From a virus, in the IMG/VR virus record IMGVR_UViG_3300028115_000004, positions 32,001 to 96,000 of that record: DNA of 64,000 nucleotides; one strand, 5' to 3'. Shown in pieces: positions 31,992 to 49,849 of this stretch. The first letter of the stretch is position 1, and each line of letters starts with the position of its first letter. A program made the translations under genes and the position numbers. The notes under the pieces were generated by a model. That model worked only from the letters and a program-made list of their open reading frames with translations, was not told where the DNA came from and searched no databases.

Positions 31992-32782
31992 TGTTATTGA
32001 CCTGTGGTTGCAGTTTTGTTTGGGGAGATGAACTGGAAGGTTGTTACGATGACCCGCCAAATCATTGGAGACATACCTTTACCAGTCTCCTAGCTAAACG
32101 CTTGAGGGTGGATTATATCAATCTGGCCGCCTGTGGAAACGGAAACGATAAAATCTTTCGGGACGTTATGACCTATCTCACCGATCCGAATAGACGACAA
32201 CCAACACACATGGTGATTCTCTGGTCTAGTTGGCAAAGAACTGAAATGGCCGAACCCGACAATTCTCATCATGCGGGGAGAAATATCCAAAGGTTCGACT
32301 CAACATCACAGTTCTCACCTGAGAGAATCCACAACATACTTCCAAAGAAATGGGGTGCAGCTCACGCATGGTTTGATAGGGCATATGATGTCAGAACCGA
32401 TATCTTGAGACAACTTCCTCTCATGATTGCCATGCAAGAAATCTGTGACCTACGAGGAATCAAATTGATTCAAGGGGCATTCCACGATAGAATGATGGAT
32501 AACATTATGTGGTCACTTAAGGGTGGTGATAGTGGTGATTTTGCGGCGTGGAATAAAAAGTTCGGTGATCTGTTTGGTAAGTTGCGAAGTGAGAGTAGAG
32601 TTGGTCTTGGTAAATATGAGACACTGAGATCAGTGAGCGAGAGGTTGAAAGACATCAAACCTAACGCCCACCCTGGCGAAGCCTCCCACAGTGAATATGC
32701 GGGAATGCTTTATGGCATCTTTAACTCTTTTGAGATAATTCGACGATTCGACAAATCTGTTGTTTCTGATCATCAACCTTAA
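31991..32782 (+). CDS. SGNH/GDSL hydrolase-like protein (tandem paralog)
   Basis: GCSFVWGDEL, NLA..GNGN..IFR, WSSWQR.E, AHPGEASH. Confidence 0.7.
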   Translation: MLLTCGCSFVWGDELEGCYDDPPNHWRHTFTSLLAKRLRVDYINLAACGNGNDKIFRDVMTYLTDPNRRQPTHMVILWSSWQRTEMAEPDNSHHAGRNIQRFDSTSQFSPERIHNILPKKWGAAHAWFDRAYDVRTDILRQLPLMIAMQEICDLRGIKLIQGAFHDRMMDNIMWSLKGGDSGDFAAWNKKFGDLFGKLRSESRVGLGKYETLRSVSERLKDIKPNAHPGEASHSEYAGMLYGIFNSFEIIRRFDKSVVSDHQP

Positions 32783-39471: not shown

Positions 39472-40148
39472 AAGTTTTTGAACATGTAGACGTTGAACTA
39501 AAAGAGATGGTTGCAGAGACAACCGAATCTGGTCGGATCTACAAAACACCGGAGGGTATCGGTTTACCCTCCATCACAACCGTACTCAGTATACTATCAC
39601 GTGACAGTATTGCGAAGTGGCGATCACGTGTGGGAGAAGCTGAAGCGAATAAAATCTCTCATCGTGCATCTACTCGTGGTACACGTGTTCACGAAATCTG
39701 TGAAAAGTATGTGGACAATGACCCCGATTATAAAGAAGGTTACACACCCGATATCATTGAGTCATTCATGCAGTTACAACCTATCTTGGATGAACGTCTG
39801 ACTAAGGTCTATGCACAAGAAGCGCCTCTCTACTCCACCCATCTTGGGGTGGCAGGTCGTGTTGACTGTGTTGGTATCTTTGATGGTAAACTATCCATCA
39901 TCGACTACAAGACCTCTATGAAACCCAAACGACTTGATTGGATTAAGAACTACTTCATGCAAGAGTCTGCCTACGCAATCATGTGGGAAGAACGTACAGG
40001 TATGCCTATCACACAGTTGGTGACTATCATCTCTGTGGATAATGCAGAACCCCAAGTGTTTATCGAACACCGTGACAATTGGGTGCGTCCTTTGCGTGAT
40101 ACAATTGCACAGTATAATGAGGAAAATTCGACTATCCAATTCTTATAA
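39468..40148 (+). CDS. PD-(D/E)XK exonuclease (Cas4/RecB-like phage exonuclease)
   Basis: PSITTVL, RGT.VH, AGRVDC, IIDYKTS, YFMQ..AYA. Confidence 0.85.
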   Translation: MKVFEHVDVELKEMVAETTESGRIYKTPEGIGLPSITTVLSILSRDSIAKWRSRVGEAEANKISHRASTRGTRVHEICEKYVDNDPDYKEGYTPDIIESFMQLQPILDERLTKVYAQEAPLYSTHLGVAGRVDCVGIFDGKLSIIDYKTSMKPKRLDWIKNYFMQESAYAIMWEERTGMPITQLVTIISVDNAEPQVFIEHRDNWVRPLRDTIAQYNEENSTIQFL

Positions 40149-40151
40149 ATA
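40144..40151 (+). promoter_or_regulatory. late promoter
   Basis: TATAAATA. Confidence 0.7.
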
Positions 40152-40189
40152 GTGTTATAATTTAATTTTCAACACTAATGGGTAATCGA

Positions 40190-41491
40190 ATGTTAAAGTT
40201 TTCAACCTTCCTGTCAGAGTCATCTCTCACTTTCGGTGAGATCACTCGTGATGACAGGGCGTTTCGTTTGGACTTGTTCCTGCGTAAGTACAAGGGCAAT
40301 GAACCGTTTGATCTGACAGACGGTAGTCAGGTTGTCCTGAAGTACAACGCAGAGATTGAGAAGTCACTCAAGGCCAAAGACGCCAAGACTGCGAACTCTA
40401 TTGGTTTGGAAACAAATGCGGGTGAGAAGATCGCCTTCGGTAAACTGGCCAAGTCTGCAGAGTTTGGTGGTGGACGTGGTTCGGGTGGCGGATCAGACAA
40501 TACCCGTGCAACCGAATCCGCTCAGTGTGTCTACCTACAGTGTATCTGGGATGACCCCCAAACCAAATTCACTCCCGATGATATTCGCAACGCATACAAA
40601 AAGACTCACGTTGATGCCTCTATGGATGAGGTTCTACTTGGGGATGAGACTTGGATTTCCACATCTATTGACGCTGCACGTCTTATCCACAAGGTACTGA
40701 AGAGAAAGAAATACAGTTTCCATCGTGGGTCGAGTTGGGTCGATGCACTTGAGTCCAAGTTCAAAGAGGTCAATAAGAATGATGGTCGTCCTTTCGCAAA
40801 CGTCAACAAGTGGACTCCTGCAGACATCTGGATGGTTGCAGAAGGGGCGGAAGGTAGATATGATATTCAGGGTGCGGAGTCCATCCAGTACCTCAATAAC
40901 GAATTGATGAAAGCCTATGCAGAGAGGGACATTATCGGTGTCTCTCTAAAACAAACTGGCAAGAAACCAAGACTGGTTCAGGTCAACTACAAGGCTCCTT
41001 TCAAAGCTCCCAAGTTCACAAGAGTAACCTACGGTAAACGTGACTTCTTTAAATCGAAGGACGGTTATCTCTTTGGTGCGGGTGGTGTTGAAATGCAATT
41101 CCGTACCTATCCCACATTCCAGACTGAGGTAATTGGTAAGAACGCAAAACACGGTAAGGTCTCGCATGGTGGTATCGACGCTGCACTCTATGCGACAACT
41201 CGTGATAAGACCGAGAACCGTAAACAACTAGAAGCCTATATCAAGAAAGACCGTGAGGGATTCCTTGACAAGTTCTATGGATTCTATACCTCTGCGGTAC
41301 AAAATCCGGTAGACCGCCAGAAGTTCGGTGAAGAACTGGCGAGTAAGAATGTAGAGTGGTTGGTATCGAAATATTATGTCACATCTATTTTTGTGATGAT
41401 CAGGGGACGTGAACAGGACTTCATGAGTTATCTGTATCGTGTCGCAAAGTCAGAATCACCGCTCTCTGCGGTTCACTTAAAGGTAATGTAA
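40190..41491 (+). CDS. PD-(D/E)XK-like nuclease with capsid-targeting-like N-terminus
   Basis: MLKFSTFLSE; KS.EFGG; T..TES; KWTPADIW; IGVSLKQ. Confidence 0.55.
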   Translation: MLKFSTFLSESSLTFGEITRDDRAFRLDLFLRKYKGNEPFDLTDGSQVVLKYNAEIEKSLKAKDAKTANSIGLETNAGEKIAFGKLAKSAEFGGGRGSGGGSDNTRATESAQCVYLQCIWDDPQTKFTPDDIRNAYKKTHVDASMDEVLLGDETWISTSIDAARLIHKVLKRKKYSFHRGSSWVDALESKFKEVNKNDGRPFANVNKWTPADIWMVAEGAEGRYDIQGAESIQYLNNELMKAYAERDIIGVSLKQTGKKPRLVQVNYKAPFKAPKFTRVTYGKRDFFKSKDGYLFGAGGVEMQFRTYPTFQTEVIGKNAKHGKVSHGGIDAALYATTRDKTENRKQLEAYIKKDREGFLDKFYGFYTSAVQNPVDRQKFGEELASKNVEWLVSKYYVTSIFVMIRGREQDFMSYLYRVAKSESPLSAVHLKVM

Positions 41492-42219: not shown

Positions 42220-43440
42220 ATGAATTTTTTAGAGTTTATCACAGAACAGAAAAATACTCACATGACCCATATTGAGGACAAGGTTCTCTATGGGGGTGTC
42301 AAGGGTACACGAGAAGCAATCTTTGCCTTGCGTGAGTTACGTGACATGTTGTCAGGTAAACACGAGGGGAAAGTTTCTGTTAAGTGGGACGGTGCGCCTG
42401 CAATCTTCTGTGGTCAAGACCCCCGAGACGGTAAGTTCTTTGTCGCCAAGAAAGGTATCTTTGCGAAGAGTCCCAAGGTCTACAAGACAGATGCAGAGAT
42501 CGATGCGGACATGTCAGGTGACCTCGCAGACAAGATGAAGGCTGCATTGCAATACTTACCCGCATTGGGAATCAAGGGTGTCATTCAGGGAGACTTCCTG
42601 TTTGGGCCTGGCGATCTACAGAGAAAGAAAATAGACGGAGAGTCCTATGTTACGTTTCATCCTAATACTATTGTATATGCTGTTCCCGTTAAAATGGCTT
42701 CTGATATTCTGAAAGCGAAGATCGGTATTGTATGGCACACCACCTACACGGGTAATGACTTCGAATCCATGAAGGCATCCTATGGTGTGAACGTGTCCAA
42801 GTTCAAGAAGTCTACTGCAGTCTGGTCTCAGGATGCGATGTTACGAGACGTTACCAAGGCAACCATGTCTGCGAGTGACACCGAAGAAGTTAATGGATAC
42901 CTAAGTACTGCAGGCAAATTGTTCAATAAGATTGCCGGATCGACCCTTCGTGAGTTAGAATCAAAACAACACATTGCACAACTGATCGAACAGTACAACA
43001 ACACTTTTGTGCGGCAAAATCAAGTGATTGGCGACACTAATCTGCACGTAAGAGGGTTGATCAAGTGGATCAACGATAAGTTCCAGAAAGAGGCTGACAA
43101 ACGTTCTACTGAAAAGGGTAAGGCAACACAGTATACAAAACGAGACGAAATCCTAGAATTCTTCTCACCCAAGAACCGTAAGTCTCTGGTTAATATGTTT
43201 GATTTGCAAAAAAGTATCGTACTTGCGAAGTTAAAACTTATAAATAAACTTGATAGTTTAAAGAAGATTGATACTTTTGTTAAGACCAAACAGGGGTATA
43301 AAGTAACCGGAGAAGAAGGTTACGTTGCAATCGATAAACTTGGTGGTGATGCGGTGAAACTTGTTGATCGTATGGAATTCTCATACAACAACTTTTCACC
43401 AGATATACTTAAGGGATGGGATAAACCAACGAGAAACTAG
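42220..43440 (+). CDS. ligase-fold nucleotidyltransferase (DUF6267-like)
   Basis: Motif I KWDG, III QGD, IV EGYV, V KLV; N-terminus MNFLEFITE. Confidence 0.65.
   Translation: MNFLEFITEQKNTHMTHIEDKVLYGGVKGTREAIFALRELRDMLSGKHEGKVSVKWDGAPAIFCGQDPRDGKFFVAKKGIFAKSPKVYKTDAEIDADMSGDLADKMKAALQYLPALGIKGVIQGDFLFGPGDLQRKKIDGESYVTFHPNTIVYAVPVKMASDILKAKIGIVWHTTYTGNDFESMKASYGVNVSKFKKSTAVWSQDAMLRDVTKATMSASDTEEVNGYLSTAGKLFNKIAGSTLRELESKQHIAQLIEQYNNTFVRQNQVIGDTNLHVRGLIKWINDKFQKEADKRSTEKGKATQYTKRDEILEFFSPKNRKSLVNMFDLQKSIVLAKLKLINKLDSLKKIDTFVKTKQGYKVTGEEGYVAIDKLGGDAVKLVDRMEFSYNNFSPDILKGWDKPTRN
43240..43247 (+). promoter_or_regulatory. internal late promoter
   Basis: TATAAATA near the end of the 42220 gene (coordinates approximate). 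Confidence 0.45.
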
Positions 43441-43441
43441 A

Positions 43442-43891
43442 ATGTCTAAACCGTTACGATTTAAAGATTTTGTAAGCGTAGATTACACTCAGTCGGGTGA
43501 TGATCAACTTGCAAATCAATCAAAGAAAAGAAAAGAACACATCCCCACAGGTAACACTGGCGAGGCGTTAGACTTTACTGCTCGTCGGAAACTTGCTCGT
43601 TCCATGAAAAAGAATAAAGCAAAGATTGCGATTGGTCGTAAGAGGGCCGCACGTAAGTTTGCAGACATGGACAAACTCAAGAAACGTGCACAGAAACAGG
43701 CACGTATGACATTCTTTAAGAAAATCACCAAAGGCATGTCCAAGGACGAACTCTCCTTCGCACGTAGACAGGATATTGAGAAACGTCTAGATAAGATGAA
43801 ACCTAAGATTGATAAACTAGCTCGCAAACTTCTTCCTAAAGTTCGCCAGCAAGAAAAAGACCGTAAGCGTGGCGGAAACGATGATGATTAA
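43442..43891 (+). CDS. highly basic protein, putative internal head protein
   Basis: LRFKDF N-terminus; EALDFTARRK.AR; Lys/Arg-rich. Confidence 0.6.
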   Translation: MSKPLRFKDFVSVDYTQSGDDQLANQSKKRKEHIPTGNTGEALDFTARRKLARSMKKNKAKIAIGRKRAARKFADMDKLKKRAQKQARMTFFKKITKGMSKDELSFARRQDIEKRLDKMKPKIDKLARKLLPKVRQQEKDRKRGGNDDD

Positions 43892-45347
43892 GAATTTTTC
43901 ACAATACCTGATCGAAGAAGAAAGAGAAGTTTATTTTACCTTTGGTAGAATGAACCCACCTACTATTGGTCACGGTAAAGTGATGGACACCCTTTCAACC
44001 AAGTCTGGAAAAGCAGACTATAAGGTGTATGTGTCCCAACAGAGTAATCCGAAGAAAGACCCTCTCTCGTATTCAGACAAAGTAAAACACATTCGTAAGA
44101 TGTTTCCAAAACATGCACGTAATGTGATGATCGACAAGAACATCAAGAACGTCTTCGATGTCGCTTCCCGTCTGTACGATCAGGGTTACAAGAGAATCAC
44201 GATGGTGGTTGGAGAAGACCGCATTCGTGAGTTTGACGTGTTGTTGAACAAGTACAACGGTGTCAAGGCTCGTCACGGATTCTACAACTTTGAGAACATT
44301 AATGTAGTCTCTGCTGGTAAACGTGATCCCGATGCAGAGGGTGTTGAAGGTATGTCCGCATCGAAGCAACGTGAGAATGCGAAGAACAATGACTTCGTTA
44401 CGTTCGCTCAGGGTGTACCCAAAACAATGTCTGACAAGGATGCACGTAAACTCTTTAACGATGTGCGTAAGGGAATGGGTCTCAAAGAAGAGCGTTCTTT
44501 CAAGAACCACATCGAACTTATGCCTGTTTCTGAAACAAGAGAACAGTACGTACAAGGGGAACTGTATGGGCTCGGTGATACAGTCGTTATCAAAGAGACT
44601 GAAGAAGTGGGTACAGTCTCGTTGCTCGGGGCAAATTACGTTATCGTCGAACGCTCAGATGGCACTCGACTACGCAAATGGCTCGATGCAATCGAACTCG
44701 TTGAAAGACAAGACCCCGACATCAAAGACAGAGAGGGAACCCAACCCGCACGATACCACTCTGGACTGAAGAAGTCCACCAAGGTTTCACGAGACGCTCA
44801 CTTCAAGAAGCACGGTAAGAAGGCAGACGATGATGACTCTGCATACAAACCTGCGCCTGGCGATAAGACTGCAAAGACTAAACCTTCCAAGTACACCAAA
44901 CAGTTCAAGGACATGTTTGATGAAAACGTAACCAAACAGGTAAAGGAAGAAATGGAGATTACCTTTGAAGGTATCTTTGCTCGTTCGGATGGTAGTCCGG
45001 AAACCACCGCTCAAATGATTTCACGTTGGGCATCCAGAACCACCAAGAAAAAACAGTACGATCAGGTTGCAAAATACATCCGTAAAGAGATGGAGAAGGA
45101 TAAGGGTAAAAAGCATAGTGCAGAATATCATGCAGCTGAGGCTATTCGCAAATTTAACCTCAAGGGGTTTGATGACAGGGCACTTGCTCAGATCGTGAGA
45201 AACGAACAGACCGAAGAGACTGATCCTGTCAAGTCTGCACAGGATTCTATCGCTCGTGAGAAAGAACAAGACAAAAAGAAACATGACAAGATTCTTGACC
45301 GTGCAAGACTTGCACGTGCAAAACAAAAGAATAGGGAAACGAAATGA
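43881..45347 (+). CDS. HIGH-superfamily nucleotidyltransferase (cytidyltransferase-like) with C-terminal modules
   Basis: FTFGRMNPPTIGH, VVGEDR, SAG.RDPD, GMSASK; N-terminus IKNFSQYLIEE. Confidence 0.8.
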   Translation: MMIKNFSQYLIEEEREVYFTFGRMNPPTIGHGKVMDTLSTKSGKADYKVYVSQQSNPKKDPLSYSDKVKHIRKMFPKHARNVMIDKNIKNVFDVASRLYDQGYKRITMVVGEDRIREFDVLLNKYNGVKARHGFYNFENINVVSAGKRDPDAEGVEGMSASKQRENAKNNDFVTFAQGVPKTMSDKDARKLFNDVRKGMGLKEERSFKNHIELMPVSETREQYVQGELYGLGDTVVIKETEEVGTVSLLGANYVIVERSDGTRLRKWLDAIELVERQDPDIKDREGTQPARYHSGLKKSTKVSRDAHFKKHGKKADDDDSAYKPAPGDKTAKTKPSKYTKQFKDMFDENVTKQVKEEMEITFEGIFARSDGSPETTAQMISRWASRTTKKKQYDQVAKYIRKEMEKDKGKKHSAEYHAAEAIRKFNLKGFDDRALAQIVRNEQTEETDPVKSAQDSIAREKEQDKKKHDKILDRARLARAKQKNRETK

Positions 45348-45592
45348 AGCGTTATGCACTCTGGGATAATCTGGGAAACCTAGAAGAGGGGCCTGATGGA
45401 CTCGCTGCAAAAGCGAAGAAGTCGGGTATCTCCGTTGATACCTTGAAGAAGGTATACAACCGTGGGGTTGCCGCATGGAAGACCGGACATAGACCAGGCA
45501 CTACTCCCCAACAGTGGGGTATGGCAAGAGTGAATGCGTTCATCGTTAAAAAGAAGAAAGGCAACCTTAACCACGACAAGGATCTTGCATAA
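45344..45592 (+). CDS. DUF5824-like small basic protein
   Basis: KAKKSG.S...LKKVYNRGVAAW.TGHRPG.TPQQW..ARVN.F. Confidence 0.6.
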   Translation: MKRYALWDNLGNLEEGPDGLAAKAKKSGISVDTLKKVYNRGVAAWKTGHRPGTTPQQWGMARVNAFIVKKKKGNLNHDKDLA

Positions 45593-46534
45593 ATGAAAAC
45601 GTTAAAAGAATTACGTGAGAAGTCAGTCTCACAAGCCCAACAAAAGATGATGGGTATGGCACTCGCATACAAGCGTGGTGAGATGGACGATGCGTCACCC
45701 GAAGTCAAGAAGATGGCAAACTCTATGTCTACGAAAGACCTAGAAGACTTCGCAAAGACCAAACACAAAGGTCTACCTGCGAAGAGAGTTGCAGAGGGTT
45801 TCACTCCTAAAGAAATCAAGATGGCAATCGGTGTTGCATCTGATAAACGATATGCGGATGGTAACTACACTGGTGCGGTCAAGGCTATCGAAAAGATCAA
45901 GAAGGGTCTATCTAAACATAGTCAAGTAGCGGCAGTTCTCAAGAGACAGAACGAGTCAACAGAACTTGTTTCTGAAGCAATTGATTTCTTCAAGGTCGCA
46001 AAAGCATTCGATGACTATGCGAAGAAGCATGGTGGTATCGATAAGTCATCCTTCATGAAGGTCGGTCAGTTTGTTCGTCAACTTGGTAAAGAGTCAGACG
46101 TAAACAAGCAGGACAAGACTTTCATGGCGATGAAGAAGTTTATTGGTGCAATGGACACTGACCCCCGTGATGGTGTGATCCAAATCCTCCAGAAGCATGG
46201 TATGTGGAAGAATGGTCGAATCATGCGTGAGTATCACGCTCAGAAGGAAGGAGTTGATTTCTTCGCACTGAGAGAAAAGAAAGACTCGTACCCTCTCTAC
46301 CACAAGACTTATTCAGGTGCAATGGCTGCCGCATATGAGTATGCGAAGAAGAAGGGTTACGAAGTAGACCCCGACGATATTGATCGTAAGGTTGCAACTG
46401 GCCCTCGCAAACCGTCCAACGGTAAGACCAACAGTTTCACTCTCAAGTTAAAGGATGAGAATCGTAAGATGCTAGCAGTACAGGTGACCAATCTGGACAA
46501 CAAGCGTTACGAACTCAATACCTATATCACATGA
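45593..46534 (+). CDS. multi-module putative internal protein with DUF3008-like N-terminal module
   Basis: MKTLKELRE; S.SQAQQK.MG.AL..KRG...SMS.KDLEDFA.TKHKGLP. Confidence 0.6.
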   Translation: MKTLKELREKSVSQAQQKMMGMALAYKRGEMDDASPEVKKMANSMSTKDLEDFAKTKHKGLPAKRVAEGFTPKEIKMAIGVASDKRYADGNYTGAVKAIEKIKKGLSKHSQVAAVLKRQNESTELVSEAIDFFKVAKAFDDYAKKHGGIDKSSFMKVGQFVRQLGKESDVNKQDKTFMAMKKFIGAMDTDPRDGVIQILQKHGMWKNGRIMREYHAQKEGVDFFALREKKDSYPLYHKTYSGAMAAAYEYAKKKGYEVDPDDIDRKVATGPRKPSNGKTNSFTLKLKDENRKMLAVQVTNLDNKRYELNTYIT

Positions 46535-47043
46535 AATCATTTCAAGAACATTGCGACTGCGGAACAGAATCCAGACTCGTAGAGAACAATCCCTACCGTG
46601 TTGGTAGTGAGAAGTACTATGAGTACTGGAAAGATGTGCGTGAGCAGTATTACAACGGTGAACTGGAGATTGACACCCATGAGTTAGATATCATGGAGTC
46701 TGATCTGGGAACCTTTGCTCACGTCGATGGTCAAAATGTTGCCTTGGATTGCATTTTCGAAGAAGAGAAACAACCGGAACTGAACAAACCCAAAGCGGGT
46801 GGCCCGAAGAAGTACTACGTGTACGTCAAAGACCCCTCGACTGGTAACATCAAGAAAGTCTCGTGGGGAGATACCACAGGACTAAAGGTTAAGTTGAACG
46901 ACCCTGCAGCTCGTAAGAGTTTTGCGGCAAGACATAAGTGTGCACAACAAAACGATAAGACAACTGCTGCATACTGGGCGTGTAGATTGCCTAGATACGC
47001 AAAACAATTAGGACTGAGTGGTGGCGGATCGTTCTTCTGGTAA
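46531..47043 (+). CDS. DUF6321-like protein
   Basis: MKSFQEH; LNKP...GPKKYYVYV......KVSWGD, RKSFAARH.C, YWAC. Confidence 0.6.
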   Translation: MKSFQEHCDCGTESRLVENNPYRVGSEKYYEYWKDVREQYYNGELEIDTHELDIMESDLGTFAHVDGQNVALDCIFEEEKQPELNKPKAGGPKKYYVYVKDPSTGNIKKVSWGDTTGLKVKLNDPAARKSFAARHKCAQQNDKTTAAYWACRLPRYAKQLGLSGGGSFFW

Positions 47044-49052: not shown

Positions 49053-49646
49053 ATGGGATTGCTTAAAAGTGCTGCGGATGTTGTCTACACGATCCGATTT
49101 CTAAAACTTCTTGTAACACCAATAGAAGACACCGAAGCATACAAGTTAGGTATCATCGATGAGAAGGGTAAAAGACGCAAGGACTTCGACGACAACACAA
49201 TGGAAAATCGTGAGGCCTTGCGAGACAACTACACTGCATTCCACAGACTTGTCTACAACATCAAGAAACTCATGGCAAAGGCGCCTGGCGGAAGTTCTCG
49301 CCTCGCATCCTATGCAGCTGCGTTATACCTTATCAAGGAACACGGAAACCTAGACGACAAGGGTCTAGAGAAAATCCATAAACAAACAGGCATCGATAGT
49401 CTTGACATGCTCGCTGAGGAAACGAAGTGGTACATGTTGAGAAACGATGAACTGTCGCCTGGCGTCTACAGGATGAAGAATCCTACGATGACCGCAAACT
49501 ATGCCGATGTGGTCGAGTCAGGTGATCAAGTGAGAATCGTTGACGGTAATCCGATCAACGAAGTTTTTGGAATAAAAATCTATCAGGCATCCCATCTGAA
49601 GTCTCAACAAAGTCTATATATTACTACCGGAGAAATAACGAAGTGA
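49053..49646 (+). CDS. conserved T4-like hypothetical protein
   Basis: YT.RFLKLL.TP, AYKLGIIDE.G, YT.FHRLVYNIK, SYAAALYLIKE. Confidence 0.75.
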   Translation: MGLLKSAADVVYTIRFLKLLVTPIEDTEAYKLGIIDEKGKRRKDFDDNTMENREALRDNYTAFHRLVYNIKKLMAKAPGGSSRLASYAAALYLIKEHGNLDDKGLEKIHKQTGIDSLDMLAEETKWYMLRNDELSPGVYRMKNPTMTANYADVVESGDQVRIVDGNPINEVFGIKIYQASHLKSQQSLYITTGEITK

Positions 49647-49849
49647 AGTCTTTCAGTAAGTTCTACGAAGAAATGACTGGAACCAGTGCCGTACCTGGCG
49701 CTGGAGATGACTCTTCTACCGTTGTTGTTCGGAAGAAGCCTGCTGTCCGCAAGAGAAAAGAGTGGTCAGACAAGTATAAGAAATCTATAGACTGTGACAG
49801 CCCTAAAGGGTTTAGTCAGAAAGCACACTGTGCTGGGAGAGACAAATGA
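49643..49849 (+). CDS. small putative internal protein
   Basis: MKSFSKFYEE; WSDKYKKSIDC..PKGFSQKAHCAGR. Confidence 0.6.
   Translation: MKSFSKFYEEMTGTSAVPGAGDDSSTVVVRKKPAVRKRKEWSDKYKKSIDCDSPKGFSQKAHCAGRDK

Follow-up and report, generated by a model that had tools for sequence, protein, structure and literature searches.

The internal proteins of phage T4 have nothing but a targeting sequence in common (PMC3012670). MKTYQEFIAE is the N-terminus of both ipII and ipIII in the T4 record, and MKTFKEFTST that of ipI. Among the marine relatives of T4, cyanomyoviruses have no homologue of g30, and undetected distant homologues have been raised as a possibility (PMC2984593). Here we analyze a locus in a 64,000-nt stretch of viral DNA (the window), positions 32,001 to 96,000 of IMG/VR record IMGVR_UViG_3300028115_000004. 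The viral contig that contains it measures 115.9 kb and is about 65% complete; it represents a marine T4-like myovirus, with almost every gene on the + strand. Phage C48C1 (Kyanoviridae) and the Methylophilales phages Melnitz are the isolates closest to it.

The locus spans positions 42220-45347 of the window and contains two enzyme genes: open reading frame (ORF) A, which belongs to the Pfam family DUF6267, and ORF B, which encodes an HxGH nucleotidyltransferase. A gene for a very basic protein lies between them. On balance, we lean towards reading the three genes as a late-gene module conserved among marine phages of the T4 type, in which a ligase-type DUF6267 protein and an HxGH adenylyltransferase, both tagged for the capsid, would be delivered by the virion and act in one pathway.

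ORF A and the DUF6267 family

ORF A (42220-43440, + strand) encodes a protein of 406 amino acids (aa) with an isoelectric point (pI) of 9.3. It is a full-length member of DUF6267 (PF19782, E 3e-107). Motif I of the covalent nucleotidyltransferases, KWDG, occupies residues 55-58 (42382-42393), where K55 is predicted to be the AMP-accepting lysine. A motif III-like QGD follows at residues 123-125 (42586-42594), and motif IV, EGYV (residues 366-369), stands 14 residues from motif V, KLVDR (residues 380-384; both within 43315-43371). These assignments were made by order and by fold match rather than by residue-level superposition. After motif I, motifs III, IIIa, IV and V are collinear and in the correct order, with D125, F146/Y153, E366-G367 and K380 invariant or nearly so.

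K55, D57, G58, D125, N149, Y153, H173, E366, G367 and K380 are among the residues that never vary in 107 DUF6267 representatives (34-63% identity to the query). They are also invariant in the homologues of S-RIM2, S-SZBM1, Stenotrophomonas phage DLP_6 and a Vibrio jumbo phage, at 25-48% identity. Since the residues do not vary among diverged representatives and distant phages, the motifs are more than a product of chance. Another motif, HxxHxED (residues 14-20, 42259-42279; H14, H17, E19 and D20), is located at the start of a long helix before motif I and is invariant across the whole family. We know of no counterpart of it in RNA ligases.

The AlphaFold model of ORF A has a predicted local distance difference test (pLDDT) score of 94.2 and a predicted template-modelling (pTM) score of 0.91; disorder (pLDDT below 50) is limited to residues 1-8. 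The model supports placing ORF A in the nucleotidyltransferase domain fold of the covalent nucleotidyltransferase superfamily, which comprises ATP-dependent RNA and DNA ligases and capping enzymes. The structures nearest to it are RNA ligases, not DNA ligases. These matches came from VIA-align searches. An initial annotation, made from the letters alone, had proposed a KxDG ligase-type fold for this protein and a HIGH-type nucleotidyltransferase for its partner, with a Foldseek comparison as a check. The structural matches and the invariant motifs bear out the ligase-type fold, and Foldseek bears out the fold of the partner. A plain Foldseek search of the ORF A model against the Protein Data Bank (PDB) gave only non-significant ligase matches (best E 0.19), with DNA ligases in the top rows.

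Relationships to named ligase families are harder to see in sequence. PF19782 is the sole Pfam match of ORF A, and no membership in Pfam RNA_ligase, DNA_ligase_A_M or similar families was found by sequence profile. When the DUF6267 profile was aligned by hhalign with T4 Rnl1 (EGYVA...K) and T4 Rnl2, the motif IV/V segment alone was aligned, with a probability below 1%. Single-sequence and profile searches of PDB sequences with ORF A and ORF B returned nothing relevant, and a search of the ESM Atlas returned unnamed viral clusters only.

Two features of the model narrow the comparison. The protein ends 25 residues past K380 of motif V, with one short helix in that tail, and therefore has no oligonucleotide-binding (OB) or DNA-binding domain. 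Membership among DNA ligases or capping enzymes was considered and rejected for want of an OB-fold domain after motif V. Motifs IIIa and IV are separated by a helical insert (residues ~215-345, about 130 in all). Judging by the model, the adenylyltransferase domain of DUF6267 is nearest to the OB-less, nick-sealing RNA ligases.

The family is large. An exhaustive search yielded 2,529 clusters at 50% identity and a word-indexed search at least 8,000 candidates. DUF6267 occurs in 468 phage records, almost all of them cyanomyoviruses.

ORF B and its association with DUF6267

ORF B (43881-45347, + strand) encodes 488 aa, consisting of a CTS-like N-terminus (CTS, capsid-targeting sequence), a domain (~15-215) resembling phosphopantetheine adenylyltransferase (PPAT) and nicotinamide mononucleotide adenylyltransferase (NMNAT), an SH3-like barrel (~230-275) and a basic tail with the first half of a DUF5824 domain. 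Homologues begin M-(x)-I-x-x-F, so translation most likely starts at ATG 43881 or 43884 rather than at GTG 43869. The (T/H)xGH nucleotide-binding signature is GRMNPPTIGH (residues 22-31, 43944-43973; T28-I-G30-H31), in which G30 and H31 are invariant in 77 homologues. S159 and R164 are equally invariant in MSASKQR (residues 158-164, 44352-44372), which we take to be the counterpart of the ISSTxxR motif of NMNAT and PPAT. These motifs, like the covalent nucleotidyltransferase motifs KWDG, QGD, EGYV and KLV of ORF A, had been picked out in the initial annotation and are found exactly where it had placed them.

The AlphaFold2 model of residues 1-276 has a pLDDT of 87. Foldseek matched it to PPAT (1o6b, E 1.2e-5), NadD (8aih) and human NMNAT (1kku) with a probability of 1.00; the fold is Rossmann-like, with template-modelling scores of 0.6-0.67 normalized to the target. 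Matches to retroviral integrases also appeared, because residues ~230-275 form the SH3-like barrel. At the level of sequence, residues 1-215 match phrog_3041 and phrog_395, labelled 'cytidyltransferase', with E values of about 1e-70. The cut-off of Pfam CTP_transf_like (PF01467) is 21 bits; ORF B itself falls just short of it with 20.8, and two of its homologues exceed it, P0233 with 34.6 bits and P0243 with 30.3. We rejected the database label as a description of function: the nearest structures and the weak sequence matches are adenylyltransferases, and the name is no evidence for the use of CTP. In NCBIfam the homologues of ORF B match, weakly, NadR/NadD-type NMN adenylyltransferases first and PPAT next. 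The best scores of the family against the curated NMNAT and PPAT equivalogs are 12-22 bits, with cut-offs of 103-341. On the strength of the model we assign ORF B to the adenylyltransferase group of HxGH nucleotidyltransferases. Its long homologues carry variable extra modules: HNH (HNH_3), PAP2 phosphatase, Zeta-toxin-like kinase and DUF5824.

The two enzymes keep company. Of the 85 loci in viral contigs that extend far enough upstream, 83 have DUF6267 5' of the transferase and on its strand, and 75 also contain the family of the intervening basic protein. The same order of DUF6267 and transferase recurs in the far more distant phages S-RIM2, S-SZBM1 and the soil Stenotrophomonas phage DLP_6. 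Natural fusions of the two enzymes exist in both orders, in 6 of the 150 best representatives and in at least 30 of 120 listed long forms, and Pfam scans add more; S-PM2 also has a fused DUF6267-transferase protein of 591 aa (BFVD). A P-loop kinase of the Zeta-toxin/AAA_33 type is a third recurrent partner, fused to either enzyme. Many long forms of DUF6267 have N-terminal extensions of 350-800 residues without a recognizable domain; in ten long forms, a Pfam search at E <= 1 revealed no Pol X domain. The metagenomic homologues P0391-P0393, P0241, P0129, P0132, P0136 and P0154 furnish examples of the kinase fusions, of the PAP2 and HNH_3 modules joined to the transferase and of the long DUF6267 forms. 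The existence of both fusion orders is good evidence for action in a single pathway, and DUF6267 and the HxGH enzyme probably do work in one. The co-occurrence of the two genes in relatives, on which the initial annotation had staked its pairing of them, is thus seen both in gene order and in fusions.

Probable capsid-targeting peptides and the putative late gene block

ORF A begins with MNFLEFITE (42220-42246, + strand), a CTS-like peptide that matches the motif expression and ends in an I-x-E prohead-protease-type site. ORF B begins with MMIKNFSQYLIEE (43881-43919, + strand), another match to the expression, with an L-I-E site. For the 437-aa ORF upstream, a start at 40190 gives the N-terminus MLKFSTFLSE, which resembles a CTS better than any other in the block. 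Among the 828 ATG starts of the contig followed by at least 60 codons, the strict CTS expression selects four genes, and three of the four are adjacent genes of this block. The fourth match, and the sole one outside the block, is a 290-aa ORF beyond the window (G000:C1:109392-110264) that starts MQKFTSFLTE.

In the family of ORF B, F6 and E12 of the tag are invariant in alignments of 25 and of 77 sequences, and L10 is invariant in the former and at least 90% conserved in the latter. Most DUF6267 representatives, not all, keep the CTS-like peptide, and it also heads neighbouring families that are otherwise unrelated. In the models of both enzymes the tag is disordered or peripheral, and it is missing at fusion junctions. 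It therefore behaves as expected of a detachable signal. The contig also encodes a gp21-type prohead protease (Peptidase_S77, PF03420, E 6e-42; G000:C1:26933-27361). Since both enzymes carry a T4-type CTS, they are probably loaded into the head and delivered with the DNA. The capsid targeting of both enzymes, which the initial annotation had regarded as apparent, agrees with the tags, with the protease gene and with the literature: the proteome of purified S-SZBM1 particles includes a homologue of the transferase, while the adjacent DUF6267 homologue is not listed (PMC9146016), and ORF154 of S-CREM2, also a homologue of the transferase, is virion-associated, such enzymes having been found repeatedly in cyanophage particles (PMC10665884). 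The S-SZBM1 transferase starts MRFRQFIIE and is thus tagged; its DUF6267 neighbour has no tag. For the phage considered here, we regard the packaging of both proteins as fairly likely.

The block runs in the order 437-aa ORF, 239-aa ORF, ORF A, the basic ORF, ORF B, an 82-aa ORF and more small basic proteins. All proteins of the block are basic, with pI values of 9.3-10.6. The first gene (40178-41491, probable start 40190) encodes a basic protein of 433/437 aa that matches phrog_1462 and has no Pfam match. Just 5' of its alternative starts (40178/40190), at 40144-40151 on the + strand, is TATAAATA, a match to the consensus of T4-type late promoters. The window contains six matches to this consensus, all on the + strand, where 1.5 are expected. 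Another of them lies at 43239-43246, inside the 3'-terminal part of ORF A, and precedes the gene of the basic protein by about 200 nt; it could be an internal late promoter.

The protein between the two enzymes (43442-43891, + strand) has 149 aa, a pI of 10.6 and 31% lysine plus arginine, and so is as basic as first described. It matches phrog_23027, whose function is unknown, and its N-terminal FKDF(V/L) resembles the core of the CTS. We consider it a candidate for a DNA-associated internal head protein.

The Pfam domain DUF5824 is split in this block, with profile positions 1-59 in the tail of ORF B (44745-44939) and positions 63-125 in the 82-aa ORF that follows (45344-45592, + strand; PF19141, E 3e-20; phrog_3041 positions 613-673). 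The start of the 82-aa ORF overlaps the stop of ORF B (ATGA), and in some relatives the ORF is fused to the nucleotidyltransferase. Its relatives begin with a CTS-like peptide of their own, MI(S/N)FKKYLEE; the copy in the window starts MKRYALWD and is without it. Small basic proteins at 45593-46534, 46531-47043 and 49643-49849 have the looser starts MKTLKELRE, MKSFQEH and MKSFSKFYEE, and starts of this kind are retained by the homologues in other contigs. The looser tags suggest a block of about 10 kb of head-loaded cargo.

Possible functions and comparison with known systems

What might such a module do? If the reading we favour is correct, DUF6267 would be a divergent enzyme of the ATP-dependent polynucleotide ligase type. 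Both tagged enzymes would be built into the prohead core, the gp21-type protease would trim their tags after ITE and LIE, and the enzymes would enter the next host along with the phage DNA. There, DUF6267 would adenylylate itself at K55 and then seal or join broken nucleic-acid ends. Its HxGH partner may use ATP and a phosphorylated substrate to make or regenerate an ADP-linked nucleotide that resembles NAD or dephospho-CoA. RNA repair, NAD restoration and protein NMPylation (attachment of nucleoside monophosphates) were put forward as roles in the initial annotation; all three are hypotheses.

Several points weigh against this reading. No mechanistic link is at hand between an enzyme of the PPAT/NMNAT type and ligation. 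Motif V of ORF A carries one lysine (KLV) instead of KxK. The 85 loci count for less than 85 independent samples, because they belong to related phages. DUF6267 copies of cyanophages and of Vibrio phages have no tag, so packaging is not general in the family. Finally, abundant soluble proteins may co-purify with virions, as the authors who described the cyanophage particles themselves warn (PMC10665884).

In an alternative that the initial annotation had not raised, DUF6267, instead of being delivered for repair, could be an unrecognized nick-sealing DNA ligase of marine T4-like phages that replaces T4 gp30 in replication, recombination or packaging, the tag being secondary in this lineage. 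This would fit the noted absence of g30 from cyanomyoviruses (PMC2984593), the near confinement of the 468 phage records to that group and the tagless cyanophage copies. No ligase of PF01068, PF01653 or PF09414 was found in the complete genomes of C48C1 (OQ984149), S-RIM2 (HQ317292) and S-SZBM1 (OL473597) or in this contig. Thus neither a canonical ATP- or NAD-dependent DNA ligase domain nor an RNA_ligase domain was detectable in any of the four, and in six-frame searches DUF6267 was the sole ligase-fold gene found in the three genomes. However, the gene stands behind a late-promoter consensus, within a block of tagged basic proteins, the protein has neither an OB nor a DNA-binding domain, and its structural matches are biased to RNA ligases. 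In addition, DLP_6 encodes a canonical ATP-dependent DNA ligase together with DUF6267, and a replicative role leaves the tight coupling to an NMNAT/PPAT-like enzyme unexplained. Taking these together, we think a plain DNA ligase unlikely, though deserving of attention. A bolder variant would combine both ideas. The pair might form a self-contained, virion-delivered two-step ligation system that also supplies the DNA-ligase function otherwise lacking, with the HxGH enzyme either making or regenerating an NAD-like AMP donor for DUF6267 or directly 5'-adenylylating the end that DUF6267 seals. In the version with an NAD-like donor, the HxxHxED helix would, by analogy, take the role that the NMN-binding domain Ia has in NAD-dependent ligases. 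We offer this variant as a long shot.

The centre of gravity may also lie with the partner. As an NMNAT (or a PPAT), the HxGH enzyme could replenish NAD+ (or CoA) in the early phase of infection, perhaps to counter defences that deplete NAD, with DUF6267 as an accessory that does not act on nucleic-acid ends. The structural matches of ORF B to NMNAT, NadD and PPAT and the weak sequence matches of its homologues to NadR-type NMNAT speak for this, the P-loop kinase fusions to either partner resemble NadR (NMNAT plus kinase) or CoA synthase, and the NMNAT idea has already been voiced for cyanophages (PMC10665884). Yet the scores stay far below the cut-off of every curated NMNAT or PPAT model, and no further NAD-salvage gene is seen in the block. 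Moreover, cofactor restoration accounts for ORF B and not for the invariant ligase motifs of ORF A. To our knowledge, wherever motifs of this type occur in the superfamily they imply a polynucleotide 5'-phosphate as substrate. Hence we judge it quite unlikely, more so than a plain DNA ligase, that cofactor restoration is the whole story. We give the lowest probability to NMPylation of proteins or small molecules by the enzymes, and to the idea that they have lost catalysis and persist as internal head proteins for DNA packing alone. The basic character of all proteins in the block would suit the latter, but both families keep their catalytic residues unchanged in more than 100 diverged homologues, which disfavours dead enzymes, and we found no precedent for protein NMPylation by either fold.

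A literature search found no published paper naming DUF6267. As far as the literature we found goes, its place in the ligase superfamily, its pairing with an adenylyltransferase and its T4-type tag are all unpublished. Nearly all sequenced T4-like cyanophages from the sea carry the family, as do the abundant myophages that infect hosts of the SAR11 and OM43 types, and a ligase-superfamily enzyme of this distribution bears on the missing identifiable DNA ligase of cyanomyoviruses. Its obligate and often fused pairing with a PPAT/NMNAT-like adenylyltransferase is unprecedented among ligases and hints at new nucleotide chemistry. If the tag truly loads these enzymes into heads, phages of the ocean would routinely inject active enzymes of nucleic-acid and nucleotide metabolism before any gene expression.

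We know other enzymes with which each half of the pair can be compared. The comparators for DUF6267 are the ATP-dependent RNA ligases without an OB domain: NgrRnl (Rnl5) of Naegleria gruberi (5cot, 6vt3), REL1 of Trypanosoma brucei (1xdn), T4 Rnl2 (2hvq, 1s68), T4 Rnl1 (9do4) and the ligase domain of fungal Trl1 (9r3w, 6n0t). DUF6267 has no detectable sequence-profile relationship to them. In place of their flanking N- or C-terminal domain it has the helical insert of about 130 residues, it adds the invariant HxxHxED motif, and its motif V has a single lysine. It also differs in being coupled or fused to an HxGH transferase and, in this lineage, in bearing a capsid-targeting tag. ORF B shares the Rossmann-like fold with PPAT (CoaD), NadD, NMNAT, NadR and NadM, and combines a TxGH as in PPAT with an SxSxxR as in NMNAT. 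In contrast to these enzymes, it falls far under every curated family cut-off, and its family adds the SH3-like domain, the basic tail and the variable cargo modules.

The nearest parallel for the module as a whole is provided by T4 IPI, IPII and IPIII (and Alt), which are loaded by a CTS and trimmed by gp21. Here, as there, an N-terminal peptide of the form M-x-x-[FY]-x-x-[FY]-[ILV]-x-E heads otherwise unrelated basic proteins, and a gp21-type protease gene and a late context are likewise present. The difference is in the cargo, which in our case would consist of large enzymes (406 and 488 aa) and not of small inhibitors. If the tag does load them, the concept of T4 internal proteins would widen from small inhibitors to large enzymes.

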